Positions 20,221 to 52,851 of a stretch of 64,000 nt of DNA are shown here, piece by piece. A program made the translations under genes and the position numbers. This DNA comes from a virus: IMG/VR virus record IMGVR_UViG_3300036770_006330, one strand, 5' to 3'. The notes under the pieces were generated by a model. That model worked only from the letters and a program-made list of their open reading frames with translations. It was not told where the DNA came from and ran no database searches. Numbering within the stretch: position 1 is the stretch's first letter; each line of letters starts with the position of its first letter.

Positions 20221-22704
20221 ATGAACAATCAAGTCCAGGACTTTACTGAAACTCAGTACAAGGCAATCCCAGGTCAAATCAGCACAAACGAATCGCAGGG
20301 CATCGTTGAATGCTTTGTTGCTGGTATCGGGAACAAGGACAGCGTTGGTGACATCTGCCTGCCTGGCTGTTTTAACGGGTCTCTTAAAAGACGCAAGCCA
20401 AGAGTTGTTTGGGGCCACAATTGGAATGAGCCAATCGGAAAAGTTCTAGAAATTTATGAAGTCGGCCCAAACGACCCACGCCTGCCGGCAAAAATGAAAG
20501 CCAACGGAATCGGTGGCCTCTTTGCAAAGGTTCAGTTCAATCTCAAGTCCGAGCGCGGTCGCGAAGCTTTTAGCAACGTGCAATTCTTTGGCGAGGAGCA
20601 AGAGTGGTCGATTGGTTATAAAACTCTTGATGCAGTGTTTGATTCAACCAAGCAAGCCAACATGCTCAAAGAAGTTGAGCTGTATGAGGTGAGCCCGGTC
20701 CTGCATGGCGCCAATCAGCTCACGGGGACCATTTCAATCAAGTCAGATAAACCACTCAAGGACCCCAAGGGCGGATTGACCGCAGCAGGACGCGCACACT
20801 TCAAGAGAACCGAAGGCGCCAATCTCAAACCTGGCGTGAAGGGTCCAGCAGATACACCAATGAAGATGCGACGCAAGGGCTCATTCCTTACCCGTTTTTT
20901 CACCAATCCATCTGGTCCGATGAAAGATGAAAAGGGTCGCCCGACTCGACTTGCTCTCTCCGCTGCCGCATGGGGTGAGCCAGTTCCAAAGAATGCACAA
21001 GATGCAGCGCGTCTTGCGGCTAAGGGTCGCAGACTTCTCGAGCGCTATGAAAACTCAAAGAAGTCGGATGAAGCGTTTGAAGAAGTAGATGAAAAGAACG
21101 TACAGATTTACTCAATTTCAGACGCTTCGCAGAATCCAATAATCGGGCGCATGGGCAATCTCGCGAAGGCTCTTTCTTCCCACTTTGGTGGCGAAGTGGC
21201 GGTGCGAGAGGCGGACAGCAATGTCGTTGTTTTCGACATTGCAAAAGACGGCAAGTCCGAGACAATGAGGGCGTCTTACCACACTCCGAATGAATCAGAT
21301 TTTATGTTCGGAGCCGCACAACCAGTCCGAGTAGAAACAATCTACTTGCCGCTTGATTCAGATGGAATGCCATCCGGGTCTCCGATTCCTTCGAGTCCAA
21401 ATATGCTTAACTCCCCCCAGAAAACTGGATGTGGATGTGGTGGAGCATGCGGAATGAAGTCGTCTCCATTCGCAACATGGGAACAGTTTAAAAATGACAC
21501 ACCTGGCATCCACATGTTTGTCAAAACTGCGAATATGGAAATGTACGAAGTTGCAAACGAAATCGCTGATTACCACGGTTTTGATGTTGAGCTGCTCGAG
21601 GATGGCTTTGCCATTGCGAACATTGACTGGTACGAAGAAGATGCCAGAAAGGCTCTTGTATCAGCAATCGAGGCAATTGAACTGAAGGCATTTGCCCGCG
21701 CAGCGAGAGCGCCACTTGGAGCAGCACGACGCGCTCGACGAATGGTTAAACCCTCGTCGTTCGACGGCGATGGTGACGGCATGAGAACTGGCCCAGATGG
21801 AAGAGACAACATTCCATATAGGAAGCCAAATGTTCCATCAATGATGCCCCCGCGAAGGGAGCCAACTGAAGTTCCCGAGCGCGAGAGAAAACCAACGGTA
21901 ATCCCAAGAACCGTTCCGCGCCCGCAGCCAGCTCCAACCCCCGCCCCCGCACCAGTACGTCCGAAGACTCCAGCAAGACCGGGGACGCCAGGTGCTGTTT
22001 CTGGAAGAATGGGCTCTTCGCGTAGAGGTTCAAAGCTCAAACTGACGGATGCTGAGATTTACAAGCAGCGCATGGCGGGTGCCTCACTCGAAGATATGGC
22101 AAAGAAGCTCGGAGTAGAGCGAATTGATATTCGCCGTGCAGAGCAAAGGCATATGCAGAAGATGCGCAAGAGCCCGTCAGCGATACTCGAACAGTTGAGG
22201 GCGCTTGAAATGGACCCGTCTTCGCCATCAGGAACTCCACAACGGGCGATGGAGAGAGCGGTTGAAATGCTGGCCGAACAAAACTCTATGTCCGCCGAAC
22301 AGGTGCGGGCAAGGATACGTCGAGCTTTGGCTAACGAGCGTAAAAAGAATATGACCAAGTCCGCTCAGGACGCAAGGTCTTTGGCGGCGTCTATACACAT
22401 ATCCATTTCTGAGAACTCAGACGTGTTTGTCAAGTCGTACTGCTCTGCAGTATCAGACGAACATCGAGCAGTGATAATTCCGATTGAAAACGAATTTATT
22501 GCTGAGTTTAAGGACGCTATGGAAACTGTTGGCAGTTACCACAACGTAACAATGGAGTTCATTGACAACGCAGTAAAGATTACGAATGCGGCAGAACTTA
22601 CGGATGATGCGGTCGAGGCGTTGTCTAATGTTGTTCATTCAACTTTGATGACGGTTCCGGTAGAAGACTCTGAAATCGCAAGAGTGCTTGGCCTCACGGT
22701 CTAG
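20221..22704 (+). CDS. HK97-type prohead protease with a long multidomain C-terminal extension
   Basis: GNKDSVGD..PGCF, VWGHN..EPIG, WSIGY, LYEVSPV..GAN; then a DUF6321-like block (KDPKGGLTAAGR...RLALSAAAWG), a repeated domain, DGDGDG and VSGRM motifs, and an HTH. Confidence 0.92.
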   Translation: MNNQVQDFTETQYKAIPGQISTNESQGIVECFVAGIGNKDSVGDICLPGCFNGSLKRRKPRVVWGHNWNEPIGKVLEIYEVGPNDPRLPAKMKANGIGGLFAKVQFNLKSERGREAFSNVQFFGEEQEWSIGYKTLDAVFDSTKQANMLKEVELYEVSPVLHGANQLTGTISIKSDKPLKDPKGGLTAAGRAHFKRTEGANLKPGVKGPADTPMKMRRKGSFLTRFFTNPSGPMKDEKGRPTRLALSAAAWGEPVPKNAQDAARLAAKGRRLLERYENSKKSDEAFEEVDEKNVQIYSISDASQNPIIGRMGNLAKALSSHFGGEVAVREADSNVVVFDIAKDGKSETMRASYHTPNESDFMFGAAQPVRVETIYLPLDSDGMPSGSPIPSSPNMLNSPQKTGCGCGGACGMKSSPFATWEQFKNDTPGIHMFVKTANMEMYEVANEIADYHGFDVELLEDGFAIANIDWYEEDARKALVSAIEAIELKAFARAARAPLGAARRARRMVKPSSFDGDGDGMRTGPDGRDNIPYRKPNVPSMMPPRREPTEVPERERKPTVIPRTVPRPQPAPTPAPAPVRPKTPARPGTPGAVSGRMGSSRRGSKLKLTDAEIYKQRMAGASLEDMAKKLGVERIDIRRAEQRHMQKMRKSPSAILEQLRALEMDPSSPSGTPQRAMERAVEMLAEQNSMSAEQVRARIRRALANERKKNMTKSAQDARSLAASIHISISENSDVFVKSYCSAVSDEHRAVIIPIENEFIAEFKDAMETVGSYHNVTMEFIDNAVKITNAAELTDDAVEALSNVVHSTLMTVPVEDSEIARVLGLTV

Positions 22705-22707
22705 ACG

Positions 22708-23094
22708 ATGCGTGACAATAACCTGTTGACAACGGCGCTGAACAACGCCACCAGGCTTCGCGATAAATCAATCATTAACGGCGATTTGAAGTCTGTGAGC
22801 AAATACGAAACAATTATTGACGAGCTGAGTGACGCAATTGAAAATGCGCAACTCGCTCCAGAGTTGATTGCATACAGAGTGAAGTCGTCGCGCTTTCTTA
22901 GACCGAAATCAAAACCCAACGTCAGCCGTAGTAACCCTGTTATGGGTTATGCTAAACCTATACAACATCAACGAATTTCATACAAATACAACTGCATGGT
23001 TACTGGCATAAAGCGCATGGATACGTGCGCTGGATGCAGTAATCCAAAAGGTTGTCTTTCGAATTCGATGCAATACAAGGAGCATCAGACATGA
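22708..23094 (+). CDS. Hypothetical protein with a C-terminal 4-Cys motif
   Basis: CMVTG...CAGCSNPKGC; ATGA-coupled to the next gene. Confidence 0.6.
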   Translation: MRDNNLLTTALNNATRLRDKSIINGDLKSVSKYETIIDELSDAIENAQLAPELIAYRVKSSRFLRPKSKPNVSRSNPVMGYAKPIQHQRISYKYNCMVTGIKRMDTCAGCSNPKGCLSNSMQYKEHQT

Positions 23095-24587: not shown

Positions 24588-24658
24588 GGTAAGATGGTTG
24601 TTGTTCCAGCAAAAAAATAGGCGCAAGCGACTGAGCGGTCGCGCCCCAGGAGCAACAA

Positions 24659-27600
24659 GTGGGAAACTCTAATCCAGATTTTGCGAATAAAGCCCTAAGG
24701 GACATTTCGCGACGCGGTGATTTCGAAATTGAGTTTGTACCCACGCTTGCCACCAAGGCGGATAAATCTCCGAAGACTGACGAAGCAGAAAAAGAAAAGT
24801 CGTACGCCAACGCGTATGACGAATACATCAAAACATGGGAGCCGGGTGACGTTCTCCCCATTGTCCCACCAGGAATAAAGTGGCATCTTTGCAGATTTAA
24901 TCCAAGCCGTCTTGCCCAAGAATCTGAAGTTTTTGAGGTCGAGGGGCAGCCATCTGGGCTAAAACAAAAAAGTCTTGAGGACCAGATTGAAATCGATTAC
25001 AAGGTACTCGGCAGAAAATTGAGAGATAGCGTTGAGTCGCTGCTTCGAAGAGCGGCAGGTGCACGCGGACTTTGGGTGGACGACAAGAATAAACTTAGGT
25101 GTCCTCCGGGTACTCCAGCCGCAAACCAGTTTACCGACATCACGGGAGCAAACTGTTTCATTCCGACACCCCGTACAGCCGCGCAGAGTGGTGCGCGAGC
25201 AGTGAGGCGAGCAGCACAGGGCGCAATGGCCCGCGGAGCACAAGTCGGAGAGCGAGTACCCGAGACATTCGATTTCGCCCGTGCGACCCAAGCCCAAATA
25301 CAAGAGCTTGGATTTGAACGCGCACAAGAAGTGATGGCTGTCGGCGGAAGAATATCTCCTCCAGATGGAACAATTCCAACCGTCATTTCTGGAGCAATGA
25401 ATGTTCCAAACGCTCTTCGAATAGGAGCCCCAAGACCACAACAGCAAAGACAAGGAAGGGGTTCTGGTTTCCGTGGAGCGCCTCCCGGGAAGGGGGGAGC
25501 CCAAGGTGTGTGGCTACCAGGCCTTCGTGAGCAAATCTATAGAGGCAAAAGACTTACAGAACTTGCTGATTCACTAGACCAAAGAATAAGAAATCCGAAA
25601 TTGCCGAACGGACTGTTTCTGCCAACCGGAATGCCAGTTGGCGACATTAGAAATAAGCAAGAGTTCGTAAATGCCCTAAGCGCAATTTTCCCCAATGTTG
25701 ACCCGGCCGAATGGGGACAATTGTTTGATAACTCAATTCCACAAAATTTGTCTTACGTTGAGAAAAAACGCCTAAAGGAAGCGCTCGTATCATTTTGGCA
25801 AGGAATAATTGCTGAGGGAATTGCGAATCCACAGCACGCTCAGTGGGTTACTCAGATGAATATTGAAACAACTGGCGAAGACGCTTTTCGTGTTGACCTA
25901 ACGCCATACGCTCCGGACATTGTTTATGGCGGAAGACGAGCGTCTGCCACGGCGCTAAAACTGCAAAGCGGGCAAAAGGCATACGAAACAGGCGGTGTGC
26001 ACTTCTCCCTAAACATCAACCCTTTAAAGATGTATCAGCAAGCATTGGGAATAGGGTTCGATAAAAACGGCCGTGCCAACGGCGTTGTTGACTCAATCCA
26101 GGGTGATATGCATTATATGGCAACGCATGAGTTTGGGCATATTGCGCACTTCAGCTCAGCAATGCGCGCGCTTGGGTTTGACCCTAATAATTTGAACAGG
26201 TACCAACTGCAGCGCTCGCTTGTGGCTGGACAAGGTGGCCCACAGTGGCAACCGAAGGAAGGTGTTGGGGCTTGGGTTATCGATTTCACAAAAGCCAAAA
26301 ACCCTCTGAATAGCCCAAGTATTGACCTACTTATCGACGCTGCTCAAAACCTCAGGACAAGAACGTATACAGGGTATCGAACCTATTCGCGACAAGAGCT
26401 CGAGCGAGACCTTAACAATTTCCACATGGCCCTTCACGAGGCCGTACTCAATAACATCACCGATACGGCCGAAGAGCGTGAATTGATGAATCAGTTCGCA
26501 GGCGGCGCCTATGGCGCATCAAGCCCGATTGAGGTTCGCGCAGAATATTACGCAGCGCGCAGGCTTTTCAGCGGAGAAAAGGGACAACAAGACAATGTTG
26601 ACCTATTTGCAGATGCTCTTTCCAAGGCGCAGAATTCTCCATATAACGCGCAGCAAATCCGCCAAATACTGGATGATTCGGGCAAAAGAACGTTTGGCGT
26701 GTCCGGGCGAAACTGGAATATCAGCGGAAGAATGCAGTCGGCACAAAATCAACAACCGTCCCTTAAGACGAGGGCGGTTAGACGTGCGGTAGCCCAGCAG
26801 GGCGGAGGACGCAGGTCGTCGGGGAGCATATCTGGCTCAATGAGGGCTCCAGGAGTCGATAGGAGCGTCGCGAGTTCTAGAGACTGGAAAGCAGACGACA
26901 CATTAAACAATCGATTCAATATTGAGGGCGAGCTATTCTCGGCGCGCGACATAGAAGCATCATTGCCGTCGATGATACGCACAACTCGCACAACCCAGCC
27001 AAGACAGCTTCGGTCAATATCTGGAAGTATGAAAATGATGGCTGACCCTGATGCGCGTCCGTACGGCAAAATACGAGATGGTGGAAATATTAGAGACATT
27101 GAAGTTGAGGGCAAGCAGTACTCATTTAATGGTGAAAAAATAATTTTTGATAACCCTGAAATATCTTACGAGGACCAATCAGTAAAAGTAATTGCGCGAA
27201 ATCCATTTGCGATAACGGGCATGGACGAAACCAGCACAAAGGGTAGGCAGCTGGCGGAGAAGTGGACGGCAGCACACATAGGAAACGGCTTAGACAGCGG
27301 CCGTGAATCCACAGAAATTGATGCACTCCTGTACGCGGGAACAAGGGGCGACACGGAAGCCATGGAGGAATTCGAAAGACTTGCAGGCATTGGACAGCAA
27401 GCGATTGACGATAAGAAGAGACAACAAAAGACAGAAGTAAACTTAAGCCAATCTCAGTTGTCGGAAATACGTCGTGAAGGCCTGGATGACTTGAGTGTGG
27501 ATGACCTATACATAATCCACGAGACCGGCTACACACCGCAACCAGATGCAAACGGTGATATTGAAATAAAACCGCTGTCCGATTTCGACACGACAACCAA

Positions 27601-30559
27601 GACTGGTTCGAAGATTCGCTATCCAAGACATACTGTGCATTTTGGCGTTAACCACATGGCTGGTGGGCATGTTTTCAGGCAAAGGTCGGACCGCGACACC
27701 GACATAGTGATTATTCCGCTATCAGAAATGATGAAAGCAAACCCAGATTCTCTAGACACTTTGCACTCTGTCGATACATACTTCACCCCGAAGCCAGGTG
27801 AGGGGCTCAAAATGAAGGCTGGGACCTACAGAATCATAAAGGGTACGCCAGACGAAGACGACACGCGAAAGCGAGTTGAGGAAACGCTAAAGGATATGGG
27901 TGCCAAGAAAATCTTTCCTGGTAGCACAGCTGAAGGAAGCACCTCTGGCGTTGATTTAGCGCTATGGAAACTTAGCGCTGAGCTTGGAGTTTCTCATGGC
28001 CTGCATTCAAACAATCCTGCAGGCCAAATAGAAAATTATGTGACACGTATGCGAGCTCAGGGCAGAAAGGCCGACCCAAATATCGGAGCTGATAGTGCTG
28101 CACGAATGAGCCGCAACGCTAGGATGCGAATGGGAGTGACGAACTACTGGCAAAGCTCAGACCTGAGCTACGGCAGGGGTGATTCAATTAGCGGATTCAT
28201 GAGAGCTCCCAATTCAACGCCGAGATACCCACGAACACCGTCGTACGGGCCGATGCTTGGCAGGACAAATGAAATCTTCGACGGTGTTAAAGACTGGAAT
28301 GATTTCAAGAGCCGTTATAACGATACGGACATTGTGTTCATCGACTACGAGACAACGGGTCTTGTTTTTGACGAATTTGGTCGTGCGTCATCAAATGGGG
28401 CCCCTGTGCAGATTGGTGCCGTCAGAGTTCGCAATGGGCAAGTTGTGGACAGAATGAATACTTTTATAAATCCCGGTAAACCCATGTCCGAGTGGGAGCA
28501 ATGGTCGCGCGACAATCTGCGAGGACCAGACGGGAACCCACTAACCGACGATTTCCTGGGCGACAAACCATCAATTTCTGATGCTCACAGAATGCTTGCG
28601 GAGTTTGCCGGACCGGACGCAATTATGGGTGTTCAAAACGCTGCATTTGACAAGAACGTGCTTGATGATGCGCTGCGCGAATCGGGAATCGACTGGACAC
28701 CAAGCGGATGGATAGACCTCAAAGATATGGCATCGATGACGTTGCCAAGATATTCAGACGAAAATCCTGATGGGCCGTTCAAGTTTGACAAGAAAAAAGG
28801 CAAAAATGTTCCATCCAACGGACTGGCAGATATTACAAAGTACCTAGGAGTTGACCTGGGTGACAAACACCACACGGCGGACGCAGATGCTGAAGCGACT
28901 GCGGAATCAATGCGAAAGCTCATAGATGGAGCGATAGAAAAGAATTGGTCTTCTGATGTATTGACCAGGTCTCGCAGGGATTCATATGTAAGCAGACAGC
29001 AGGACCAATTCAATAAAGATATCGCAACATTTGAGTCAGACTTGGCAGAATACAAACAGACAGCCGTATCCGGCAAGATGACCACAACGCCAAGAAATTC
29101 AAACATACTTGATTCTGTAAAACAAAAGGCAAAAGGCTCGACTTTTGGTTCTAACACTACTCGTGAATACATAGACTCACTTCCTTCAAAAATGCGCTGG
29201 ATGGCACAGACCCTTGAGGAAAGCGAGCCAGGACGCATTGCGGCGCGACGAGAGATTGTAGCGGGCCTCAAGCAATTTGCCACAAACGGTGAAACAGAAA
29301 ATCCAGAATTGCAGTTGGGGCGCATCACAAATGGACTCGACCCTGAGTTCTTCAGGTATCTACAAACTGCGGATGAAAACGAGCTATTGGCTGATTTACG
29401 TCAGGCCGGAATCGAATTTCATTCTGGAATCAACATCGAACCAGTATCAATGGTTCGCGCCGACAATATCATGGACGTAATAAATAATGGTGTAAAGCCA
29501 AACCCGAAGGCTGCCGGAATCGGTAAAATCTATGAGGCAGATATTGGAATTCACCCCGATACCGAAAACAGCTTAAGACCAGTTGTAGCCCAGGCCGTAC
29601 ATACTGACACTCTTGCGGCGGAAACTGCGGAAATAGAGAAATTTTTCAGGGAAAACAACTTAGATTTTGATGGTTCGAGATACAACATCGACCTTGTTGA
29701 CAGAACTCCATATCGGCGAAATAGGGACACTTCGCTTGCGTCAGGGGAAGTGGAACTGATACTCAGGCCGGATGTTGCACAACGCACTGCGTACGGAAAT
29801 GGCAGCGCAATAAATAACCATATCTTCCCAGTCTCAATGACGTCATCTGACCCAGACGCAATTGGGAGAGCAGTCATCGACCCCAATGGCAGGGCTGATG
29901 ACAGAGACGAGAATATCGTTGAGCTTCTGTACGGAAAGTTCAAAGGCAACTACAACGCCTACAGAACCGACAATGGCAAGACGCGTCCACAGATGGCGGG
30001 CCGCTGGTCAGGCAGGGACGCACTAATTCTTGGGGGCATAGAGCCAGGCGATATTCAAGAAATTCGCATCCCGTTCAATTCAATAGTGCCCGCAGAAACG
30101 CACAGAGAAGCATCGGCATTGCGTCCAGGCGACATTCCGTTTGGGGACATTTCCTCGGACGCAACAATACGCGACGCTGCCACAAAGAAAAATATACCCA
30201 TATTCCAAATCGTGTCTGACATTGCGAACGGGGTTGACCCATACGAGGCGATGCCAGAGAGCATATGGTCACGGATAAACGATGTTGGAAGCTATAGCGA
30301 ATTAGCTTCAGTTCAGTCAAAATTGGCAAAAGTAATCGCAGCTCGAGAAATCCGAGACAGGGCAAATGCCTTTGACATAAAGACATCCTTTACCAACCAG
30401 TATGGTTTGGATGTCTTCAATGGAAAAACATTTTCGTCGTTGGCTCGTGCCAACTCTGAGGCGGAAAATGTGCTCCGAGCACGAAGGCGTGACATTATTG
30501 AAGAACTCATTAAGGACCTGAGGCGCGTGAAAAACGAAATGGGCAAGGCCACTAAATGA
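24659..30559 (+). CDS. Giant polyvalent protein A (1966 aa): zincin metallopeptidase, ART-like, DEDDh exonuclease and DUF3626-like domains
   Basis: HEFGH...E..AEYY; IDYETTG...NAAFD...HHTADAD; six [IV]SGxM motifs; RCP...C motif; GGAG RBS before the GTG start. Confidence 0.8.
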   Translation: MGNSNPDFANKALRDISRRGDFEIEFVPTLATKADKSPKTDEAEKEKSYANAYDEYIKTWEPGDVLPIVPPGIKWHLCRFNPSRLAQESEVFEVEGQPSGLKQKSLEDQIEIDYKVLGRKLRDSVESLLRRAAGARGLWVDDKNKLRCPPGTPAANQFTDITGANCFIPTPRTAAQSGARAVRRAAQGAMARGAQVGERVPETFDFARATQAQIQELGFERAQEVMAVGGRISPPDGTIPTVISGAMNVPNALRIGAPRPQQQRQGRGSGFRGAPPGKGGAQGVWLPGLREQIYRGKRLTELADSLDQRIRNPKLPNGLFLPTGMPVGDIRNKQEFVNALSAIFPNVDPAEWGQLFDNSIPQNLSYVEKKRLKEALVSFWQGIIAEGIANPQHAQWVTQMNIETTGEDAFRVDLTPYAPDIVYGGRRASATALKLQSGQKAYETGGVHFSLNINPLKMYQQALGIGFDKNGRANGVVDSIQGDMHYMATHEFGHIAHFSSAMRALGFDPNNLNRYQLQRSLVAGQGGPQWQPKEGVGAWVIDFTKAKNPLNSPSIDLLIDAAQNLRTRTYTGYRTYSRQELERDLNNFHMALHEAVLNNITDTAEERELMNQFAGGAYGASSPIEVRAEYYAARRLFSGEKGQQDNVDLFADALSKAQNSPYNAQQIRQILDDSGKRTFGVSGRNWNISGRMQSAQNQQPSLKTRAVRRAVAQQGGGRRSSGSISGSMRAPGVDRSVASSRDWKADDTLNNRFNIEGELFSARDIEASLPSMIRTTRTTQPRQLRSISGSMKMMADPDARPYGKIRDGGNIRDIEVEGKQYSFNGEKIIFDNPEISYEDQSVKVIARNPFAITGMDETSTKGRQLAEKWTAAHIGNGLDSGRESTEIDALLYAGTRGDTEAMEEFERLAGIGQQAIDDKKRQQKTEVNLSQSQLSEIRREGLDDLSVDDLYIIHETGYTPQPDANGDIEIKPLSDFDTTTKTGSKIRYPRHTVHFGVNHMAGGHVFRQRSDRDTDIVIIPLSEMMKANPDSLDTLHSVDTYFTPKPGEGLKMKAGTYRIIKGTPDEDDTRKRVEETLKDMGAKKIFPGSTAEGSTSGVDLALWKLSAELGVSHGLHSNNPAGQIENYVTRMRAQGRKADPNIGADSAARMSRNARMRMGVTNYWQSSDLSYGRGDSISGFMRAPNSTPRYPRTPSYGPMLGRTNEIFDGVKDWNDFKSRYNDTDIVFIDYETTGLVFDEFGRASSNGAPVQIGAVRVRNGQVVDRMNTFINPGKPMSEWEQWSRDNLRGPDGNPLTDDFLGDKPSISDAHRMLAEFAGPDAIMGVQNAAFDKNVLDDALRESGIDWTPSGWIDLKDMASMTLPRYSDENPDGPFKFDKKKGKNVPSNGLADITKYLGVDLGDKHHTADADAEATAESMRKLIDGAIEKNWSSDVLTRSRRDSYVSRQQDQFNKDIATFESDLAEYKQTAVSGKMTTTPRNSNILDSVKQKAKGSTFGSNTTREYIDSLPSKMRWMAQTLEESEPGRIAARREIVAGLKQFATNGETENPELQLGRITNGLDPEFFRYLQTADENELLADLRQAGIEFHSGINIEPVSMVRADNIMDVINNGVKPNPKAAGIGKIYEADIGIHPDTENSLRPVVAQAVHTDTLAAETAEIEKFFRENNLDFDGSRYNIDLVDRTPYRRNRDTSLASGEVELILRPDVAQRTAYGNGSAINNHIFPVSMTSSDPDAIGRAVIDPNGRADDRDENIVELLYGKFKGNYNAYRTDNGKTRPQMAGRWSGRDALILGGIEPGDIQEIRIPFNSIVPAETHREASALRPGDIPFGDISSDATIRDAATKKNIPIFQIVSDIANGVDPYEAMPESIWSRINDVGSYSELASVQSKLAKVIAAREIRDRANAFDIKTSFTNQYGLDVFNGKTFSSLARANSEAENVLRARRRDIIEELIKDLRRVKNEMGKATK

Positions 30560-30974: not shown

Positions 30975-31616
30975 GTGGACCTCATTAAACAAATTCTTGA
31001 TGGCAAGCTGGTGATTGCCGACAGCGAGAAAGCAGACCCAGCTGGTGCTGTAATTCCACAGGAGCGAATCACGGGAGACGTTCTCAAAGGAAGAGGGCCG
31101 AGGCGCGGAAACCTAGAGCGACTCCTAAGGTACTGGCGACCGATAATGAGAAAACCTGGCGGATTTAGAAGATGCCGGGTTATCCTTGCTGACCATCCAG
31201 AGCTATACCCGCTCAACAATATTTGCGCTTGGCTTCACCACGAGACGACAGGTCTTTGGCCAAACGAAGGTTGCCATCACCCCAACATGAAGAATTGCAA
31301 AAAGAAAATACGAGGCGTTGTGAGGGGCAGTGTTTGGAGCGATGAGGAATTCGACAACAGACTTCGAAAGCTCACTTCTCGTGCTGGTCGGAAATCGATG
31401 GGTTTTGCGGGAGTCCGTGCTGCCGACGAACCATTCGCCCCAGTTATTACGGATGAAGATTGGACACACGCAATTAAGGTTCTGCAGGACTTCACGGAGA
31501 TGGAACCTGATTTTGTTAAGTACATTCAGGATGACCAAAACTGGGAACACGAACACGGTTTCAAGGTTGAACAAATGAATTTGGAGCCAATGGATGAAAA
31601 CAATATTGAATTCTGA
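30975..31616 (+). CDS. Head-associated hypothetical protein with a Cys/His motif
   Basis: AAGGAG RBS; LLRYW...PGGFRRC......CAWLHHETTGLWP resembles a block I recall from actinophage capsid-maturation/MuF proteins. Confidence 0.6.
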   Translation: MDLIKQILDGKLVIADSEKADPAGAVIPQERITGDVLKGRGPRRGNLERLLRYWRPIMRKPGGFRRCRVILADHPELYPLNNICAWLHHETTGLWPNEGCHHPNMKNCKKKIRGVVRGSVWSDEEFDNRLRKLTSRAGRKSMGFAGVRAADEPFAPVITDEDWTHAIKVLQDFTEMEPDFVKYIQDDQNWEHEHGFKVEQMNLEPMDENNIEF

Positions 31617-39469: not shown

Positions 39470-39473
39470 TTGA

Positions 39474-44600: not shown

Positions 44601-47600
44601 GCGAGACCAAATTGCAAACCTCGATAATAGACTTGAAACAATCCGCACCGGAATGGGCATTTCAAAGCTAAACCAGATTGGCGGACAGCAGCAATTGCTT
44701 GGCGCACTCATGAAGGCAGCAGCGCAATTAGAACCTGACGATTCTGACATGCCAGACGATATTGATATTCCAGGCGATGGCGACGTAGATGTAATGGAAA
44801 TAGAAGACAAGCCAGATGCAGATGCAATCAACGAAATGCTTGATGCGTTCAAGGATTTTCTTGGCGATGCTGGAGATACAACTGTATCGATACGTTCTGA
44901 AGACATAATAAGAGCAAGACAACTAAATCGTCAACTTGAATCCATGCCAGACCCTCGTTCGACGGTCCCAGATACCGACGACTTCTGGAATGGCCTGAGG
45001 GACCAGGATGGGAATCCATTACCAGACTATGACGGAACAGCAAGTCACCCATTAAATTTTGGCCCAGATGGACAACCACTCAAGGTTGATGACCCAGATT
45101 TCATGCTTGCCGATTCCCTGTATCGCGAACACCTTGACCCAAACAACTATGAACTTCAGGAATGGATAAGCATTGATAATCCCCATCTTGGCGGAAGATA
45201 CACGGCGCCACCGAAAGAGCTGGTTAGCCGGTTCTACCAGGGCGACGCAGACTCAAAAGACCCAGAACAAATTGACAAACGAATCAGCTGGGACAGATTA
45301 ATTGGCTATATCCAAAGAACTGCACCCAATCTTTTCCGTCGCAACAAGAAGGGTGAACTTGTTGGAGACATGAATGAGTTGACAAGGAACGGAAACTACG
45401 GAGGCGCCAGCTTTAGTAATGCTCAATTCGACCCGAATGTTCCTTCTAGCGGATACCAGTTTGAAGCCCAGCTTGCGGAACTTAGGGATGCAACGATTGC
45501 TGCACAGAATGCTGAATATCTTTCGCAGGATGCGACTAGTGCCACTGCACGAGCACGGCTATGGGACCTTCACACACAGAGTGGCTTTACTCCAGATGAA
45601 ATAGCTTTTGACCTTGAGATAGTGGACCCACAAGTTGTTTCTACTGCGCTAATGATGCACGCTTCAGACAACAATGTCTCTTCATCTCAGCAGCGGCAAT
45701 TCATGAATATTGCGCAACAAGCAGCTGGTCCAAGACGGGCAACATATGACAAGAAGCGAGTTCAGCGCATTATTGATGAGCTTAGGGGCCTTGCCCGACT
45801 CAGTGGCTCAGGAGCAACCGACTCTCGCTCAATGGTTGCAGAAATTGACAGAGCAATAGCAATACAAGAAGACAGGCTTGCCAAGGTTCAAAGAGAGTAC
45901 GACAACTTCCGTGCCGAAACGCGGACACTGCAAAACATGCTGACTGGATTGTTGCTAACCCGCCCAAAGAACAGAAAAATGGTTCGGGATAATGATGGAA
46001 ATATTGTTCAGGATGGCTGGGACGAAACCAAAGAACCTCTAGCCAGATACCTAAATAGAATCCGCCTATGGGACGATGAATATATCGGCTCAACTAACCC
46101 TGTAACTGGAGAGCGTCGCATCGGGATGGTCACCTACCTGGTTAACCGAATGAAAGATATGGCTCGGATGACCGGAGACGATGGCGGAGCCTCAGCAACT
46201 ACGTTCATTGCTCAAGTTGCCCAAAGCAACATCGCAGGCCTGAGACAATTTAGGTCTGAAATTCAAGGTGTTAGCTCGGACGCCCAAAATGTTGGAATTT
46301 CTGGTTTCATGCGTTCCGGAAGCGCAATAAATAGAGCGGAGTTTGCTGCTCGACGCGGAGCGCGAAAAGCAGCATCTGGAAGATTCGACTTTGCAGACCC
46401 GAGAATACTTAAGCGATTTGATAACGCCGGCTACCCAGTGACTAGAAATATGGTTGGCGCTGCATCCGGTTTCAATCCGCAATATTCGAATTTCATTGCG
46501 GATGCAACAAGGGTAAATAATTTTAAATATGCAAATGGACCAGAGTTCAATTATTTAAATCCCAGAGAACAGCAGATAATTCGCGCACTTGATGACATGG
46601 GTGTTTCTGGCCCGGTCAGAAATCCGGCGCCTGGTGTCCGAGATGAAAACATTGGAAGACGCGTAAGAGACGCCATAGGAATGAACAAGAGGCCAATTAA
46701 GCGCTCTGGTCTTGACCTTACTGGTCCGGTAGAACCGAAGCGTAATCTTTTCAACCCGGAAACCTATGGCCGTCAATCGATGCGCAATAGAACAAGTATA
46801 AATATTGCTGGTCGGATGAGTTCGAGCAAGCCAGACATGTTAATGGAAATGGAAGTTGAGCAAGCGCCAAACGGTAAGTGGTATGTAGTAAACAAACATG
46901 GACAGGCGCTCATTGATTCTCCTTTCGATTCGATGTCGAAGGCAAAAGATGCAATGTACTCATTGCGTCAAACCATTCACGAAAAGGGACGAAGAAGGGA
47001 CCTCCCTGGAACCGTAGCCGAATGGGAGGCAACCGTTGCGGGAATGAAGCAGGTTGGATATCGCTCCCTTTCCCGCGAAATGCGAAATGCAATGGATGTC
47101 GCTCCAATTTCCGCAAATGGAGAAAAGAATCGCTTCATTTTTAAGATAGATGCTGGTCCGAAGCCACGAGCTGGCGACTCAGTTATTTTTAGACGCAACC
47201 CATCGACCAACCAACCAGAAGTTCTTTTGATTGGCCGAGCATTTGGCCCACATAGAACCGAAGCTGATGGGACCATGAGTCTTCCTGGTGGCCTGTTTGA
47301 TGCGGAGGCAGGAGACAAAGACCTAATGGACACAGCACTGCGTGAAGCAGTGGAAGAAATAGGACTTGACCAATCACGCCTACTAAAAGTCGAGCGTCTT
47401 GGAATTATTGATGCACCAGATTGGGACCCTCGGTTCTCCAAGGGCGTTGAGGTTGGTGGAATTTTTGTTGAGGTCCCAGGTGACTGGGAACCAACGGCTG
47501 GCGACGATGCTCTTTCAGCAAGATTTGTTCCATTATCAGATATTGCCAGTGGCGAGGTTCCACTCGGTTTCGGACATGCAGCATGGCTCGAGGCGGCATT

Positions 47601-50600
47601 TGGAGGCTCCGAAGACGAAGATATCGCCAAGCACACAACCGGAATAGCCCTTGCAAACAGGCTCTCCAGAGAGAGACAGCAAAGAATAATTGCGTCCGTT
47701 AACGAGGGTAGAAAGATTTGGAATAGGGATACACAAAAGCAAGCAATTACGCTATTCGACCAAGACAACCCAGAGCTTGGTTTATTCCCGGACGAAATGC
47801 CAGAACCAACCTGGGGATGGAGACCGACAGGCCCAGAGGCAGAAGCCAGAGTTGCCGAAGTGAGAAAACGAGTTCTCGCACAAGCCAAAGCAGAACTGGC
47901 AAAGCGAAATCCTCCAAAGGGTGGATTAGGAAGAATTTCTGGTTCGATGAAAGCCAGGGCATTAGAAGTTGATACACCGGATTTTGCCTACAGAATTTCT
48001 CCAGACGCCCGTGAGCGAATCGAGACAGATGTCATGTCGCTCAGACGAAAGGGCATGTCCGCTCGCTCAATCGCTGAAACTCTCAGCAATGTGTACTCGA
48101 TTGATGACTCAATGATTGTAGATGGCCTTGCAATTTCCCCGACAGACTCCCTGGTGAATGGCGTTATACGTAGTGCCAAAGACTCTGGCGTCAACCTGCC
48201 TGAAGCGAAAGATACATTTGATAGGCGGAACTTTGACCTCACGAGCGACGCAGCTCAGATGGCAATCAGCGGAATGGACCGTTCATCAATTGCCTCATAC
48301 CTAGATACATCTGACGCTAGGGCTTCGAGAATCCTAAATTCTCTTGGATTTGATGTTATGCCAGGAGATGGTTCACCTACCTCAATAGAGTCGAGCAGAC
48401 AAAAATTTGCAGACCTGCCTATCAGTAAGCAGCTATACATCGATTCCACACACCGAAGAATGACTTTATCTGAGCTCTCAAAGAAATACAAACTTCCAGA
48501 GTCGAGAATCAGGGAGTCAATTGAACAATACAGAACAATCGCTGAAAACGACTCGGACATGATTTCTAGCAAATACCGCTCCCTCATGAGAGACGGCGGC
48601 GAATCGGTTCTTACACCAGAAGAGATGAATCACGTACGCATGAGGCTTGACGGAATGTCATATTCCGAAATATCCTCAGCAATGGGCATTCCAGAAGGTG
48701 TCTCACGCAGACGCGAAGCATCTAGCCTTGCAAAGTTGCGTGCAATTGATAATGACGGATTCTATGAGGTTGAAAAAGAAAAAACCATTCAAAGACTTCG
48801 CTCGCTACCAGTAGCAGAGTACATGGATGAGCGTGCGCTTTCTTTTGCTGCAGCAGCTGGTTCCACCCCTCCGCCGGATGACCCGGATGACCCAAATAAA
48901 ATTACTCAAGCAGAAATAAGCAAACTTCAGAAGAAGTTTGCTTCCGCTCGCGACATGCGCGATTTCAGGAGTTCAGCAAAAGACGCATACATGCGTAATC
49001 AGTATCTTGGGCAAAGCGTAGAAGAAATTGCTGATATGCAGAATAAGTCGCCTCGCGATGTGCAGCAAGCAATACGCGCCTACGATAAAGCAGTACAAGA
49101 ATCGGACACATTGAGAGACAGAGCATTGAGGAGAGCGCTTGCATCTGCAGCTGATTCATTGTTCACTGAAAACGAACTGGCATTCATCAATATCAGAAAT
49201 GATGGTGCCTCGCTTGATGACGTAGCTAGATACTTTGGAACAGATAAAGCTTCGGTGAGAGCAAGGCAGATGATGCTCATGTCTCGCCTCAACATGAATA
49301 ACGGACTGGGTAGTTCAATTGACTCGGTTTTGGATGCAGACTCAAGAGACCTATACAATGAGCTTGGCGTGCCAACTAGCGCCAGTCGTGAACAGCTAGA
49401 AGACGCGATGCACGATGTTATTAAGACACACTTTGATAGGGCGCTACGCAAGGATAGAGATTCAAGAGAGATAATGCGCAAGGCGTCGGAGGCCTACGCA
49501 ATCCTGTCGAATGAAAATCTCAGAAATCTTTACGACAATAACGAGTTGTCGCCATCGAATGCCAAATCGTTCTGGGAAAACTACGACGATTTCACCAGCT
49601 ATGTTGACCCGTCAACTGGGCAAAGAAGACACCGGTCATTTGGCTATGCAATGAATGATGAACCATTCAAGTCTCGTGATGCATTTAGACTACCACATGA
49701 TACTGGCTCTGACGTAATCTCCGACGACATTGATGACGGTTTCCTTGGATTTACTCTAAATGATAATGTTTCTGATTCTTCAATAAGCGACATGATGTAT
49801 AGGAAGCCAATTCCTGGAACAAAAGAATGGCGTGATAAGAAACGCGATGCGCAAATTGCAATAAGTTCTGGCGACCCAAGATATATGTTTGACCAAGATG
49901 GTTTTATTGCTGGCAAGAAAATGTCTTTCGACCCACGATACGACGACCCAATGTCTCCCGACTACATCGGGGATAGGTTTGGTGGTCCAGCCAAGGGCGT
50001 GAGTCCATTCCAGAACATGGATTTTAAGCCGAAAAAAAAAATAAATAATTCGATATCTGGGAAGATGTCATCCAAATGGGATGACACTTACGAAAAATCC
50101 ATTGGAGTGAATCTTCCAAAAGCAGAATCTATCGATAACGCGGACACAACAAACATATCCAGTTTTTCTAAGTTTGCAAGCCCTGCGAAAAATGAGTCAT
50201 TCTTCGAAATGACTTCCACTTTTGGTGGCAAAACGCCAGTCAGGGAGAGCCGTTTCTGGGGTCTATATTTCCCTATCGCCGAGGCAATTAACAATTCTGT
50301 GACAAAGCGTAAGCGCAAAAAGGGTGAGAGAAAAGTATTTGTCAGTGTTGGCGGTGCCCCAGGCTCTGGAAAGACTTCAATGAGAACTGATGGGACTGGA
50401 GGCATCCCGTCTGTTAGCGACGCAGTTCATGTTGATGCCGACAAAATAAAACTCCTTATACCTGAAGCTCGCGCCATGCACGATGCTGGAAACCCAAATT
50501 GGGGAGATTCGGTTCACGAAGAATCGCGTCTAATTGCAGACCTCACATTGCGCATGGGCCTAGAGCAAGACCACGATATTGTCTACGATTCAACTGGTCA

Positions 50601-52851
50601 ATTCAACAGCGGTTACGATACGCTAAAAGCAGCACGAGCAAATGGGTATGACATCGTCATGCACTATGTTTCGGCTCCGCAATCTGTGTTAACAGAGCGT
50701 GTAGATGAGCGAGAAAAAACAGATAATCGTCGCCTGCCAAGACATATTATTGCCGCAACAATTGATAGGAATTACAGGATAATGCCTGAGGTTGCCGAAG
50801 CTTCTGATGAGTTTTATCTATGGGATTCTTCCGGCAAGCAAAAAGTTCTCATTGCCAAAAAAGAGAAGGGTAAGAAACTGGAAATACTTGATGCTCGGGC
50901 CTATCTCTATGGTGGATTCGACGACTCTGGCCAGAAAGTCACAATGGATAATCCAGTCAAAGTTGCAGCACAGCGCAAAGTGGCGAAGGGCTCCCGTGAT
51001 GCGAAATTCCTAGAAGATATTGGTTCTGGTATGAGCCTTAGTGAAGCTGCCAAAAAGCACAAGATGTCAAAGCAGTCTGCTTTTGTAATCGCCTCCGAAG
51101 TAGAAATCGACCCAAATCTTCCAGAGGTAAAACCGTGGCAGCCAACAACTACTGGCAAATTGCCGACTGGCAAAAAAGCTCCGAAGAATGCCGCATATAT
51201 TCCCGACTCTCAAGCTGAAGAAATATTCCTAACCCTGCCGGACCAAGTGCAACAAGACATAATCTCCATGGTTTCAGGAAATCTTGATGAGAGTGTCAAA
51301 AAACAACTGCAGGACTATCTCGCGCAAAACGAAATTCCGTCAGATGTCATGGTTTGGGCCTGGGAAAACCTAGAAACATTGGCGTCTGACCCAACGGAGG
51401 AAATGTTTGAGGACCAGGAACAGTGGTCGATGCTGCCAGAATCAACAAAGGATGCGATTATGACAGCGCTCGAGAGCGGCTCAGACCCCCTTGAAATAGC
51501 GCAAATTCTTGGTGTTCCGTTTTCTTGGGTTGAGCGAGGCGTAGACGAATTGTACGAGGATGACGGTAACGATATATCCGGAAGAATGTCTTCACCCAAA
51601 AAATCTGCATCGAAAATATTGGACCTATCAGCAAAGAAATCCCCTCGATGGAGCGATAGCGAAATAAATGCAGCCAGAGCAGTGGATGCTGATTTGCCAC
51701 AAAAGCCCGGAATTTCCGGTTCGATGTCGTCGCCAGATGACCTAAACGAAGAACTAGCAGATTATTATGACGAGGATGGTCCGCTTGGGTTCCCAACAAT
51801 TCGTCACCCATTGATGTATTGGATGGGTCCTGTTGATGTGGACCTCATAAATAAGATGTTTTCACAAAAAGTTAATGCTGTTAATGATGCATACGAGAAC
51901 AAAAACTGGAATAGTTACATATACATGCATGAGAGGCCATATCGACTTGACGCCTTGATGGACATCGAAGACCAAATGAGCGACGACGAATTCTGGGAAA
52001 ATGTCGGCTCAATTTGGGTTGATTCAGAAAACATTTGGCAAAACCGGGATATTTGGTCTGATATTTTGACCTCCGACAGGCCCGGTAGAGAAAAAATCAT
52101 GACCTCGGAGGAGCTCCAGGATTTCAACAATCTTCCTGATGAGATAACCGTATACCGTGGGCACATAAAAGGCAAAAATAAAGATGGTTTATCTTGGACA
52201 ACTTCAGAGGAAAAAGCACGCTGGTTTGCAAATCGCTTAGCTGCTGGAAAAGATGAGCCCGATGTTGCTGAAGGAGTAGTTAAGAAAAGCGATGTCATCG
52301 CCCACTTCACAAGGCGGGGTGAATCTGAAATAGTTGTTGCGAGCCCGGATAGTGTTTCAGGCAGGATGAGTGACGAGAATCCAACAGATGAACAACGCAA
52401 GGTCAATGACAGGATTAAGAGAGCTGTGGCGGTTGAGAGAGGCGAGGCTATTGCAGAAAGGATGCTGGACGCAATGGCAAGAATGGATGGTTTCCAAGAC
52501 TGGGAGCACTATTCTTTGTCAAAAAGAAATCAAGATGAAATTGCTTTTGCGGATAAGTATTCGGGCGGTCCAGGTCGCCTAGAGCTCAACCCAGACATTA
52601 CAGATGGCTTCCATTACAGGGTAGATAATCCTTCTGGTTACTATGGAATTCACCGAGGGGCCGGAATGGATATTTACCACCCTCGCGAGGGAGCTGTTGA
52701 CTTCATCAGTTTTACCGATGTATACAAACATTCGCTCTTGACCCCAATGACTCCAGACGAATGGCCATCCCCGCAGCAAGTTCAGGATGAACTAGATGAG
52801 TGGGTAAAGACATACAGAGAGGACTACGACAGGAATTATGGAAAACCGTAA
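41614..52851 (+). CDS. Giant polyvalent protein E (3745 aa; alternative start ATG 41629): DUF3721-like, DUF5872-like, Nudix, HTH array, J-domain, zeta-toxin kinase, R-S-E ADP-ribosyltransferase
   Basis: GCIG...WMPC; YTKPELRER...GQWSARKAQ; PGG...REAVEEIGL; DLYNELGV...EAYAILS; GGAPGSGKT...DADKIK...YDST; VYRG...SWT...ESEIVV; eight [IV][SA]GxM motifs. Confidence 0.85.
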   Translation: MSKSAMGELNKETSEQSKAMLGAPRLLRPSDPDVYDNPESARVRARQIGCIGIRRYNNRNGGVSWMPCTNESDYRRVSGFGHSGRRFRRQQLEREVREIIGRRGSRSFSKKSANYTKPELRERLKQRIMAGSKGGAPGQWSARKAQLLASAYRKAGGGYRGRKTSKQRSLSRWTKQKWRTIDGKPARRGNVVRRYLPARAWGKLTPGQRQATNRKKIQGSKRGEQFVANTEAARKARKRSVVSKKHAEFYEDFEFKAVGKKLGRALPGKLGPGGGSGGRKARRVGASLRGAMARFDPNAVDADADNIVQEGTIYERPAPPRSGAVSSLTNIRAPQIPEPERAFGRAARSSDGRFASPASRAISSGRSRAEREITRGSRATPKPRIVPKTPTARRLAEQAGQTAVPAARRGRITGRRDYAVPQVSRDVRDSIREQRADIYERFATGDYTVQQLADQFDVVRDEITSSIRAHENFRNSNLRKFKKGSPKLYQAISGFGNSRGSFDEAIKERKFSNWDGLVRHIFTDPKLRRSGKHTDMQNDLFKAFPDGKNPDKDSNIELGYLPSVRGESRPPVKAFNDRRSPTPEFRPLSLSPRQPGRLGSASDIAERAGRRAAFRRDSLIIDAMRRGDSISGAMSSVNMTPAEERDWKRKEWTRQQLKNFALDPDVKKKYPTLANQLGDGPLIDAVLGLDGLDDDSLGNLWDATVTEISATPGSKVPAYQARQAPLSPRELAAASTVKRPLVSAFLDEYKKSAPGGQLAKLDASRMTDEDVESFYNTFILPELINNGAPSQQDIEAAAALPAVRSRLNEAEQILLNVPLELRTLDLRMKLARKALESTNIDPDSPEFEDALQKLINDQLDLEAVQFAEDVEKWLRGGFDRPRRIPINPMTGQEYTDGELEAQINIVRDNIERLSADLDKMQMEELQHLGFIRNILFDALMLEEFFAEGDARNLDKPVDPLTGRELSMREYLESASYQLNQVPINPLTGKKYTLQEMRDQIANLDNRLETIRTGMGISKLNQIGGQQQLLGALMKAAAQLEPDDSDMPDDIDIPGDGDVDVMEIEDKPDADAINEMLDAFKDFLGDAGDTTVSIRSEDIIRARQLNRQLESMPDPRSTVPDTDDFWNGLRDQDGNPLPDYDGTASHPLNFGPDGQPLKVDDPDFMLADSLYREHLDPNNYELQEWISIDNPHLGGRYTAPPKELVSRFYQGDADSKDPEQIDKRISWDRLIGYIQRTAPNLFRRNKKGELVGDMNELTRNGNYGGASFSNAQFDPNVPSSGYQFEAQLAELRDATIAAQNAEYLSQDATSATARARLWDLHTQSGFTPDEIAFDLEIVDPQVVSTALMMHASDNNVSSSQQRQFMNIAQQAAGPRRATYDKKRVQRIIDELRGLARLSGSGATDSRSMVAEIDRAIAIQEDRLAKVQREYDNFRAETRTLQNMLTGLLLTRPKNRKMVRDNDGNIVQDGWDETKEPLARYLNRIRLWDDEYIGSTNPVTGERRIGMVTYLVNRMKDMARMTGDDGGASATTFIAQVAQSNIAGLRQFRSEIQGVSSDAQNVGISGFMRSGSAINRAEFAARRGARKAASGRFDFADPRILKRFDNAGYPVTRNMVGAASGFNPQYSNFIADATRVNNFKYANGPEFNYLNPREQQIIRALDDMGVSGPVRNPAPGVRDENIGRRVRDAIGMNKRPIKRSGLDLTGPVEPKRNLFNPETYGRQSMRNRTSINIAGRMSSSKPDMLMEMEVEQAPNGKWYVVNKHGQALIDSPFDSMSKAKDAMYSLRQTIHEKGRRRDLPGTVAEWEATVAGMKQVGYRSLSREMRNAMDVAPISANGEKNRFIFKIDAGPKPRAGDSVIFRRNPSTNQPEVLLIGRAFGPHRTEADGTMSLPGGLFDAEAGDKDLMDTALREAVEEIGLDQSRLLKVERLGIIDAPDWDPRFSKGVEVGGIFVEVPGDWEPTAGDDALSARFVPLSDIASGEVPLGFGHAAWLEAAFGGSEDEDIAKHTTGIALANRLSRERQQRIIASVNEGRKIWNRDTQKQAITLFDQDNPELGLFPDEMPEPTWGWRPTGPEAEARVAEVRKRVLAQAKAELAKRNPPKGGLGRISGSMKARALEVDTPDFAYRISPDARERIETDVMSLRRKGMSARSIAETLSNVYSIDDSMIVDGLAISPTDSLVNGVIRSAKDSGVNLPEAKDTFDRRNFDLTSDAAQMAISGMDRSSIASYLDTSDARASRILNSLGFDVMPGDGSPTSIESSRQKFADLPISKQLYIDSTHRRMTLSELSKKYKLPESRIRESIEQYRTIAENDSDMISSKYRSLMRDGGESVLTPEEMNHVRMRLDGMSYSEISSAMGIPEGVSRRREASSLAKLRAIDNDGFYEVEKEKTIQRLRSLPVAEYMDERALSFAAAAGSTPPPDDPDDPNKITQAEISKLQKKFASARDMRDFRSSAKDAYMRNQYLGQSVEEIADMQNKSPRDVQQAIRAYDKAVQESDTLRDRALRRALASAADSLFTENELAFINIRNDGASLDDVARYFGTDKASVRARQMMLMSRLNMNNGLGSSIDSVLDADSRDLYNELGVPTSASREQLEDAMHDVIKTHFDRALRKDRDSREIMRKASEAYAILSNENLRNLYDNNELSPSNAKSFWENYDDFTSYVDPSTGQRRHRSFGYAMNDEPFKSRDAFRLPHDTGSDVISDDIDDGFLGFTLNDNVSDSSISDMMYRKPIPGTKEWRDKKRDAQIAISSGDPRYMFDQDGFIAGKKMSFDPRYDDPMSPDYIGDRFGGPAKGVSPFQNMDFKPKKKINNSISGKMSSKWDDTYEKSIGVNLPKAESIDNADTTNISSFSKFASPAKNESFFEMTSTFGGKTPVRESRFWGLYFPIAEAINNSVTKRKRKKGERKVFVSVGGAPGSGKTSMRTDGTGGIPSVSDAVHVDADKIKLLIPEARAMHDAGNPNWGDSVHEESRLIADLTLRMGLEQDHDIVYDSTGQFNSGYDTLKAARANGYDIVMHYVSAPQSVLTERVDEREKTDNRRLPRHIIAATIDRNYRIMPEVAEASDEFYLWDSSGKQKVLIAKKEKGKKLEILDARAYLYGGFDDSGQKVTMDNPVKVAAQRKVAKGSRDAKFLEDIGSGMSLSEAAKKHKMSKQSAFVIASEVEIDPNLPEVKPWQPTTTGKLPTGKKAPKNAAYIPDSQAEEIFLTLPDQVQQDIISMVSGNLDESVKKQLQDYLAQNEIPSDVMVWAWENLETLASDPTEEMFEDQEQWSMLPESTKDAIMTALESGSDPLEIAQILGVPFSWVERGVDELYEDDGNDISGRMSSPKKSASKILDLSAKKSPRWSDSEINAARAVDADLPQKPGISGSMSSPDDLNEELADYYDEDGPLGFPTIRHPLMYWMGPVDVDLINKMFSQKVNAVNDAYENKNWNSYIYMHERPYRLDALMDIEDQMSDDEFWENVGSIWVDSENIWQNRDIWSDILTSDRPGREKIMTSEELQDFNNLPDEITVYRGHIKGKNKDGLSWTTSEEKARWFANRLAAGKDEPDVAEGVVKKSDVIAHFTRRGESEIVVASPDSVSGRMSDENPTDEQRKVNDRIKRAVAVERGEAIAERMLDAMARMDGFQDWEHYSLSKRNQDEIAFADKYSGGPGRLELNPDITDGFHYRVDNPSGYYGIHRGAGMDIYHPREGAVDFISFTDVYKHSLLTPMTPDEWPSPQQVQDELDEWVKTYREDYDRNYGKP

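Follow-up and report, generated by a model that had tools for sequence, protein, structure and literature searches.

We analysed a 64,000-nucleotide stretch of DNA (the window, by which we mean its whole length) from the IMG/VR virus record IMGVR_UViG_3300036770_006330. Its source is an uncultured myovirus whose tail genes lie on the minus strand. On the plus strand, a portal protein fused to a MuF domain is followed by an S78 prohead protease protein of 827 amino acids (aa), about 30 kb of mostly giant genes, and then an HK97-type major capsid protein (MCP). The genes between the protease and the MCP are, in order, p128, p511, A (1966 aa), p113, p213, p688, p1803, p136, D (682 aa), and E (3745 aa). 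Our subject is a recurring pentapeptide, [IV][SA]GxM, which an earlier note on this DNA had placed 16 times in this head module; each placement proved exact, with one copy in the protease polypeptide, six in A, one in D, and eight in E. The proteins and their sites are as follows.

20221..22704, plus strand: S78 prohead protease protein, 827 aa (Pfam: S78 at residues 23-171, and DUF6321; then a Pro-rich linker, the motif, and a 231-aa C-terminal module)
21997..22011, plus strand: protease-polypeptide site VSGRM, residue 593
24659..30559, plus strand: protein A, 1966 aa, seven modules of 246, 445, 36, 63, 390, 293, and 493 aa
25385..25399, plus strand: A site ISGAM, residue 243
25400..26719, plus strand: zincin module of A, residues 248-687, with HEFGH at 26126-26140; candidate reader of the motif
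26720..26734, plus strand: A site ISGRM, residue 688
26828..26842, plus strand: A site ISGSM, residue 724
27017..27031, plus strand: A site ISGSM, residue 787
28187..28201, plus strand: A site ISGFM, residue 1177, preceding the DEDDh exonuclease module
29066..29080, plus strand: A site VSGKM, residue 1470, following the DEDDh exonuclease module
39474..41522, plus strand: protein D, 682 aa, two modules
40344..40358, plus strand: D site ISGAM, residue 291
41614..52851, plus strand: protein E, 3745 aa, nine modules, including Nudix, an HTH array with a J-like domain, zeta toxin, and ART-like (Pfam)
43501..43515, plus strand: E site ISGAM, residue 630
46297..46311, plus strand: E site ISGFM, residue 1562
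46804..46818, plus strand: E site IAGRM, residue 1731
47935..47949, plus strand: E site ISGSM, residue 2108
50053..50067, plus strand: E site ISGKM, residue 2814
51574..51588, plus strand: E site ISGRM, residue 3321
51712..51726, plus strand: E site ISGSM, residue 3367, its G and M invariant in 11 homologues
51727..52353, plus strand: ART-like module, E residues 3372-3580, equivalent to PHROG 4776 (6.6e-71)
52354..52368, plus strand: E site VSGRM, residue 3581, preceding a 161-aa C-terminal module absent in the related genome G001

The protease was assigned by Peptidase_S78 (1.1e-11, above the cut-off) and the PHROG head maturation protease (2e-29). Protein A combines the zincin with an RNase_T (DEDDh) domain, and E combines NUDIX, Sigma70_r4, DnaJ-like, Zeta_toxin, and ART-like domains. 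Within the ART-like module, the Arg of YRG, the Ser of SWT, and both Glu residues of ExE were invariant; a Foldseek search with its model gave weak matches (best E 0.25), mostly to ART-fold proteins. The catalytic ESE of this module is followed after 8 residues by VSGRM, as had been noted before. The J-like domain of E (residues 2579-2641, ~49348-49539) scored 25.1 bits against a Pfam cut-off of 27.8 and has HFD in place of the J-domain HPD. A DGDGDG[FM]RTG..GRD..P stretch is common to the protease extension (residues ~520-545, ~21780-21855) and D (~78-100, ~39705-39775), and is kept in protease homologues.

The number of copies far exceeds chance. Composition predicts 0.27 copies of [IV][SA]GxM in the 7,220 residues of these proteins, and across 5,000 shuffles the count averaged 0.26 and reached 3 at most, consistent with the previous estimate of well under one. 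The codons used (ATT/ATC/ATA/GTT/GTA; TCT/TCC/TCA/AGC/GCT; GGA/GGC/GGT/GGG) showed free variation at the Ile/Val, Ser/Ala, and Gly positions, which indicates selection at the peptide level, as proposed earlier, and excludes a DNA-level recombination site. Internal translation starts at the Met were likewise excluded: positions 1 and 2 are kept as amino acids across synonymous and non-synonymous codons, no consistent Shine-Dalgarno sequence precedes the Met, and a sister group of phages described below has Arg in its place.

The copies fall between domains. None of the 16 copies in the head-module proteins of the window lies inside any Pfam or PHROG domain envelope. The RNase_T envelope of A (1226-1416) sits between the sites at 1177 and 1470, and the NUDIX, sigma-r4/DnaJ-like, and Zeta_toxin regions of E each lie between consecutive sites (Pfam). 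The 237-position profile of PHROG 4776 matched E 3373-3577, which is the exact stretch between ISGSM 3367 and VSGRM 3581. Disorder propensity of the flanks was above the protein median at 16/16 sites (Wilcoxon p = 1.5e-5). The AlphaFold models covered five sites, all at domain edges or in low-confidence stretches. For the zincin module, the C-terminal site was disordered, and the N-terminal site formed a short strand followed by a low-confidence linker; for E 3300-3745, the ART-like fold spanned approximately model residues 74-286, with ISGRM and ISGSM in low-pLDDT sequence before it and VSGRM at its end. The earlier view that the copies occupy linkers and interrupt no domain is borne out by these results. 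Some inter-site segments are short, namely 36 and 63 aa in A and 46 aa in E.

The four-protein account was nevertheless incomplete. A six-frame scan of the whole window (open frames of at least 150 aa) found [ILVM][SA]GxM only in the protease, A, D, E, and the tape measure protein (TMP), whose four copies, against 0.46 expected (P = 0.002), had been overlooked, as had Leu at position 1, Thr or Val at position 2, and a probable extra site in p688. There was no copy in the MCP, the portal protein, or the acidic p511 of the window. The additional sites are listed here.

1651..6498, minus strand: TMP, 1615 aa, four motif copies; follows the sheath, tube, and chaperone genes
6355..6369, minus strand: TMP site LSGSM, residue 44
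6334..6348, minus strand: TMP site LSGAM, residue 51
4789..4803, minus strand: TMP site LSGAM, residue 566
4066..4080, minus strand: TMP site ISGAM, residue 807
32254..32268, plus strand: probable extra site IVGQM in p688, residue 221

The p688 site reads IVGQM in G001, IYGSM in the distant relative L038, and LVLNR, despite conserved flanks, in a clade lacking the zincin. The pooled logo was [GSN]-[ILV]-[ST]-G-[ARKS]-M-[SARG]-[SG], its Gly and Met being fixed by the search pattern, and the true consensus is wider than [IV][SA]GxM, namely [GSN]-[ILV]-[STAV]-G-x-M-[SARG]. One sequence that fits the relaxed pattern, LVGDM at E residue 1249 (45358-45372), is kept only in the closest relatives and is probably a chance occurrence. 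Thus extended, the motif marks where swappable modules meet in A, D, and E; it also marks the protease's C-terminal extension, three TMP regions, and probably p688.

Relatives of the phage were found in IMG/VR, among them a complete genome of 160,282 bp (G001) with the same layout as the window; they belong to an uncultured, aquatic family of ~160-kb phages. In G001, 23 copies of the pattern [ILV][SATV]GxM (1.17 expected) are confined to six proteins, with nine in E, seven in A, three in the TMP, two in D, and one each in the homologues of p688 and p1803. Among the remaining 175 genes there was none, against 3.1 expected (P = 0.044), a marginal value that gives only a faint hint of avoidance elsewhere in the proteome. 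Homologues of A with about 50% identity to the window protein kept every site at its aligned position, with position 2 widened to Ser/Thr/Ala/Val, while the flanks diverged and carried indels. The 17 E-like proteins (2633-5070 aa; 29-95% identical where aligned) had 6-11 copies each, against ~0.2-0.4 expected, and 42 TMP homologues had 133 against 16.9, with recurrent positions near residues 44, 575-590, and 750-830. The protease site was VSGRM, VAGRM, ITGRM, or ISGRM in most relatives and ITGRT in one; in the protease of relative L003, the alignment stops a few residues past the motif, and the C-terminal module is otherwise missing from it. When 1.84 billion representative proteins were searched exhaustively for the zincin module, only 19 clusters came back, and 17 of the 19 representatives are large A-like proteins with 4-7 motif copies each.

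Rearrangements among homologues map to the same positions. When 18 E-like and 18 A-like proteins were cut at the motif and the pieces clustered, they resolved into discrete modules of consistent length, present in varied order and set. The A family showed the module orders B-A-x-x-J-C-D, B-A-x-F-E-C, A-O-C-P-E-F-D, and B-A-G-H-E-F, and the zeta and ART-like modules of the E family were found in either order. Of the internal ends of BLAST homology, 22-28% lay no more than 10 aa from a site, whereas 5-6% of random positions did. Comparing the window with G001, an extra 236-aa module of G001 is bracketed by two copies, and the 161-aa C-terminal module of the window follows a motif copy lacking in G001. 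The idea of the motif as a modular socket for cargo holds up here, since modules are swapped, gained, and lost at the motif while the sites are kept. These comparisons support the motif as a selected peptide signal at module junctions.

The motif also varies in a concerted manner. Identity at its variable positions within a protein was 0.56, against 0.32 when shuffled, a value reached in 0/5,000 shuffles. Whole proteins each use their own variant (VSGKM, LSGKM, ISGRM, or LTGAM), and the site in the protease follows suit in the LTGAM lineage, reading ITGAM or LTGAM. Such drift of unrelated sites points to co-evolution with a single trans-acting reader, apparently one per genome.

We therefore weighed which protease might be that reader. 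Our preferred reading, to which we assign a probability of about 0.5, is that the motif is the recognition site of one phage-encoded endopeptidase, most likely the HExGH gluzincin in module 2 of A, which would cut the delivered polyproteins late into about 20 proteins. The HExGH and E386/E390 of this zincin were invariant in 17 homologues, and its AlphaFold2 model had a pLDDT of 78. A wide fold search gave anthrax lethal factor as the best match (Z 7.5, 187 residues aligned), followed by a putative zinc peptidase (Z 6.1); there was no match in Pfam, and a profile search of PDB sequences was empty. A complex prediction for the zincin core with a 40-aa linker containing ISGSM scored 0.23 against a mark of 0.32, which speaks neither for nor against binding.

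Comparison among three clades bears on the choice between the zincin and S78. The S78 domain of clade 2, which comprises G005/G006 and marine relatives, is 76-77% identical to that of the window. In place of the window motif, which it lacks, this clade uses [STAG]GMR[ST]: each S78-fused giant has 7 copies and the A-like protein 6-7, further cargo proteins have 2 and 3, and the TMP has 1; there were none in other clade-2 proteins and none in the window. The S78 protease is here the first domain of a polyprotein of 2044-2314 aa with poly-Pro linkers and 7 GMRS-type tags (L028 9986-16927; L025 7553-13684). A conserved HExxH domain occupies the place of the window zincin in the clade-2 A-like protein and is only remotely homologous to that zincin (hhalign 88%, E = 3e-6, 13% identity). 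The single GGMRS of the clade-2 TMP was considered as a positional homologue of window TMP site 566, which could not be established, as the alignment is unreliable there. Clade 3 (G002/G003) has an S78 domain 75% identical to that of the window, is without the zincin, A, D, and E genes, and showed no recurring motif; it has a single giant of 2392-2434 aa corresponding to p213, p688, and p1803. The 75-77% identity of S78 across clades extends to the surroundings of the conserved WGH and EWSIGY stretches, taken as holding the putative catalytic His and Ser. In more distant TMP relatives (P0111-P0188), [LF]SSG is enriched instead of the window motif (36 copies against 8.9 expected), which fits a third dialect. 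As a between-clade correlation, the motif code thus appears to track the zincin rather than S78.

The earlier note had the polyproteins loaded into the prohead and cut. In one alternative, the reader would be the S78 prohead protease, acting within the prohead on the cargo ahead of DNA packaging, as the prohead proteases of T4 (gp21) and SPN3US (gp245) do. The S78 gene lies directly upstream, its own polypeptide carries the motif, and the clade-2 cargo polyprotein is fused to S78; [ILV]-x-G could fit an assemblin-like P3-P2-P1 pattern, and motif-directed head maturation is established, as with AXE in SPN3US (PMC10052503). We nevertheless consider this explanation unlikely, and favour the zincin, because S78 is 75-77% identical, putative catalytic stretches included, in clades with another motif or none, and because the MCP is without the motif while the TMP, assembled outside the prohead, has conserved sites. 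The acidic, scaffold-like p511 is also without it. We examined the MCP as a possible carrier, and rejected it: the S[IV]G[QE][MA]F region of its N-arm (SIGQMF, TIGQMF, SVGEAF, SIGEAF) is independent of the clade dialects. The broader polyprotein reading, by contrast, gains comparative support from the junctions, the shuffling, and the concerted variants; it is cutting in the prohead that leaves the TMP sites unexplained.

Rather than a cleavage site, the motif might be a docking or hinge signal for packaging, for threading through the portal and tail, or for a chaperone. Every protein that presumably passes through the tail has it, the TMP included, and cleavage is itself a prediction. This alternative seems to us improbable to a greater degree still, as the motif borders modules that exist free-standing elsewhere (PHROG 4776) and brackets a protease-like zincin; its dialects are lineage-specific and concerted and track the peptidase-like domain; and the 36- and 63-aa segments of A and the 46-aa segment of E are hard to see as functional units and typical of spacer peptides.

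Adenain-type proteases cut (M/I/L)XGX-G sites, which the motif resembles. A reader of this kind, or another phage or host protease, is the least plausible candidate, even though many modules of A, D, and E are without a recognised fold and different hosts could underlie the different dialects: Pfam searches at E up to 1 of the head-module proteins and unassigned modules, several of which have no assigned fold, found no further peptidase family, clan CE (adenain-type) cysteine proteases included; the motif is absent from the zincin-less clade; and its fine concerted drift among close phages is more readily explained by a phage enzyme that evolves fast than by a conserved one of the host.

Returning to the zincin as reader, we infer cleavage, the enzyme, the scissile bond, packaging, and timing from comparison, and the following course of events would fit. 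The polyproteins would enter the head via their invariant first modules (module B of A and module B of E), and other cargo by fusion to the protease; packaging in the capsid is suggested by this fusion and by where the genes lie, with the S78 protease on one side and the MCP on the other. Carried in the virion, they would be delivered with the DNA. The zincin, itself bracketed by two sites, may free itself in cis and cut the rest in trans. Cutting would be late, probably after ejection, because the TMP must stay whole to set tail length; lambda gpH, for comparison, is shortened at a late stage of tail assembly, and the enzyme responsible is not known. The approximately 20 proteins set free would include the zincin, the DEDDh exonuclease, the Nudix hydrolase, and the HTH/J-like, zeta-toxin-like, and ART-like modules. 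The scissile bond is probably that between x and Met, with Met at P1', because zincins usually select the P1' residue; this placement would also fit the Met-to-Arg switch between dialects at the one invariant non-Gly position.

Several points weigh against this reading. The fold similarity of the zincin is only middling (Z 7.5), and a Foldseek search of the PDB with its model returned nothing at E <= 0.001. S78 and the zincin adjoin in every divergent A-like locus examined, so that no motif-bearing genome separates them, and a few substitutions could retune the specificity of S78. Assemblin-like proteases favour sites with a hydrophobic P3 and a small P1 residue, a pattern that the [ILV]-x-G of the motif resembles. 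The packaging of A, D, and E is read from gene order alone, and a head-packaged zincin reaching the TMP makes sense only if cutting follows ejection. The phage is uncultured, and the whole system is known from sequence alone.

The neighbouring genes complete the picture of the locus.

7736-9193, minus strand: sheath gene
7258-7710, minus strand: tube gene
6695-7204, minus strand: tail chaperone gene
16300-17604: large terminase
17851..20133, plus strand: portal protein fused to a MuF domain (Pfam Phage_portal 1.1e-48, Phage_Mu_F 3.2e-8); motif absent
53138..54544, plus strand: HK97-type MCP (Pfam Phage_capsid 1.9e-40); motif absent

The closest cultured capsid proteins are those of Gordonia and Brevibacterium phages (44-47% identity), in which enzyme genes likewise lie between portal and capsid. 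Gene p511 (23052-24587), between the protease and A, encodes a very acidic protein with Cys clusters, kept in all three clades and of no recognised family; it may have a scaffold role. The products of p213, p688, and p1803 (window 30975-39068), none of which was assigned to a family by Pfam or PHROG, form one fused protein of ~2400 aa in the zincin-less sister clade (L031 3843-11018; L032 3657-10958). A [WY]RCP-x7-[QR]FT[DN]-x5-C element occurs near the N-termini of A (~147-168, 25097-25162), p688 (~132), and p1803 (~186), and also in clade-2 A-like proteins; it may serve in packaging or anchoring.

Parts of this scheme have known counterparts. In T4, gp21 cuts [LI]xE, and IPI-III and Alt have capsid-targeting leaders; phiKZ gp175 is a prohead protease with motif-directed sites, and the herpesvirus protease follows the site pattern [VLI]xA|S. 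The SPN3US prohead protease gp245 cleaves head and ejection proteins at an AXE motif (PMC10052503), and T4 Alt is a packaged ADP-ribosyltransferase, as cited in PMC5512222. The window shares with T4, phiKZ, and SPN3US a recurring short motif in head-packed, later ejected proteins, as those of the window probably are, and an S78 assemblin-like protease is encoded in its head module. In those phages, the prohead protease reads the motif, mostly N-terminal propeptides are removed, and the MCP shares the motif. In the window, by contrast, the MCP is without it, the sites part whole enzyme modules, the TMP is included, and the motif appears independent of the prohead protease.

Closer still are the polyvalent proteins defined by Iyer, Burroughs, Anand, de Souza, and Aravind in 2017, which are phage or conjugative-element polypeptides with two to fifteen unrelated effector or enzymatic domains, and whose embedded zincin was predicted there to release domains, in the head or after injection (PMC5512222). 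A and E are multi-domain proteins of this kind, and their genes lie between portal-MuF/S78 and the MCP. The likeness lies in giant chains of unrelated conflict enzymes (ART, Nudix, nucleases, zincin) near portal/MuF genes. Set beside the zincin-like MPTase family of polyvalent proteins, the window zincin has an invariant HExGH and downstream Glu and a modelled fold closest to that of lethal-factor-like zincins (Z 7.5), without a Pfam or PDB sequence match. No cleavage motif is given in the portions of that paper available (PMC5512222), whereas we describe an explicit site with zincin-tracking dialects, to which rearrangements map and which includes the TMP. MARTX and large clostridial toxins carry an embedded, InsP6 (inositol hexakisphosphate)-activated cysteine protease that cuts inter-domain linkers after translocation, in eukaryotic cells (PMC3153235). 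There too, effectors are delivered as one chain and freed by an embedded protease, a functional analogy and not homology: MARTX has a cysteine protease, after-Leu cutting, and a eukaryotic target, and here there are a candidate zincin and a bacterial target, and no MARTX-type cysteine protease domain (CPD) was found. The former statement that no such system had been described was hence too strong, given the established motif processing of head and ejection proteins (PMC10052503) and the zincin processing predicted in 2017 (PMC5512222). In our literature search, neither this motif nor zincin-linked dialects turned up; the concept is already known, and the explicit lineage-specific code is new in the literature searched.

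The motif helps to parse domain boundaries in thousands of unannotated phage residues, and orthogonal protease and site pairs could serve as laboratory tools. If the motif is a cut site, the 2017 prediction of zincin processing becomes a rule open to direct test, for which enzyme and substrate are defined and nature supplies specificity variants. More tentatively, and at less than even odds, we propose that the family uses a private, co-evolving protease and site code in at least three dialects ([ILV][ST]GxM, [STAG]GMRS, [LF]SSG), such that all injected proteins, including the TMP, would be dismantled only after delivery, and one packaging signal would carry an exchangeable train of anti-host enzymes. 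A dedicated zincin would then recognise the invariant Met/Arg at P1', and a Met there would leave the released enzymes with a stable, native-looking N-terminus. Should the motif be a cut site, this would explain how giant multi-enzyme proteins can be loaded by means of one targeting module and then set free as about 20 separate effectors, and why cargo is freely shuffled, as any tag-flanked module would be compatible; it would also tie processing of the TMP to the same enzyme as that of the cargo.

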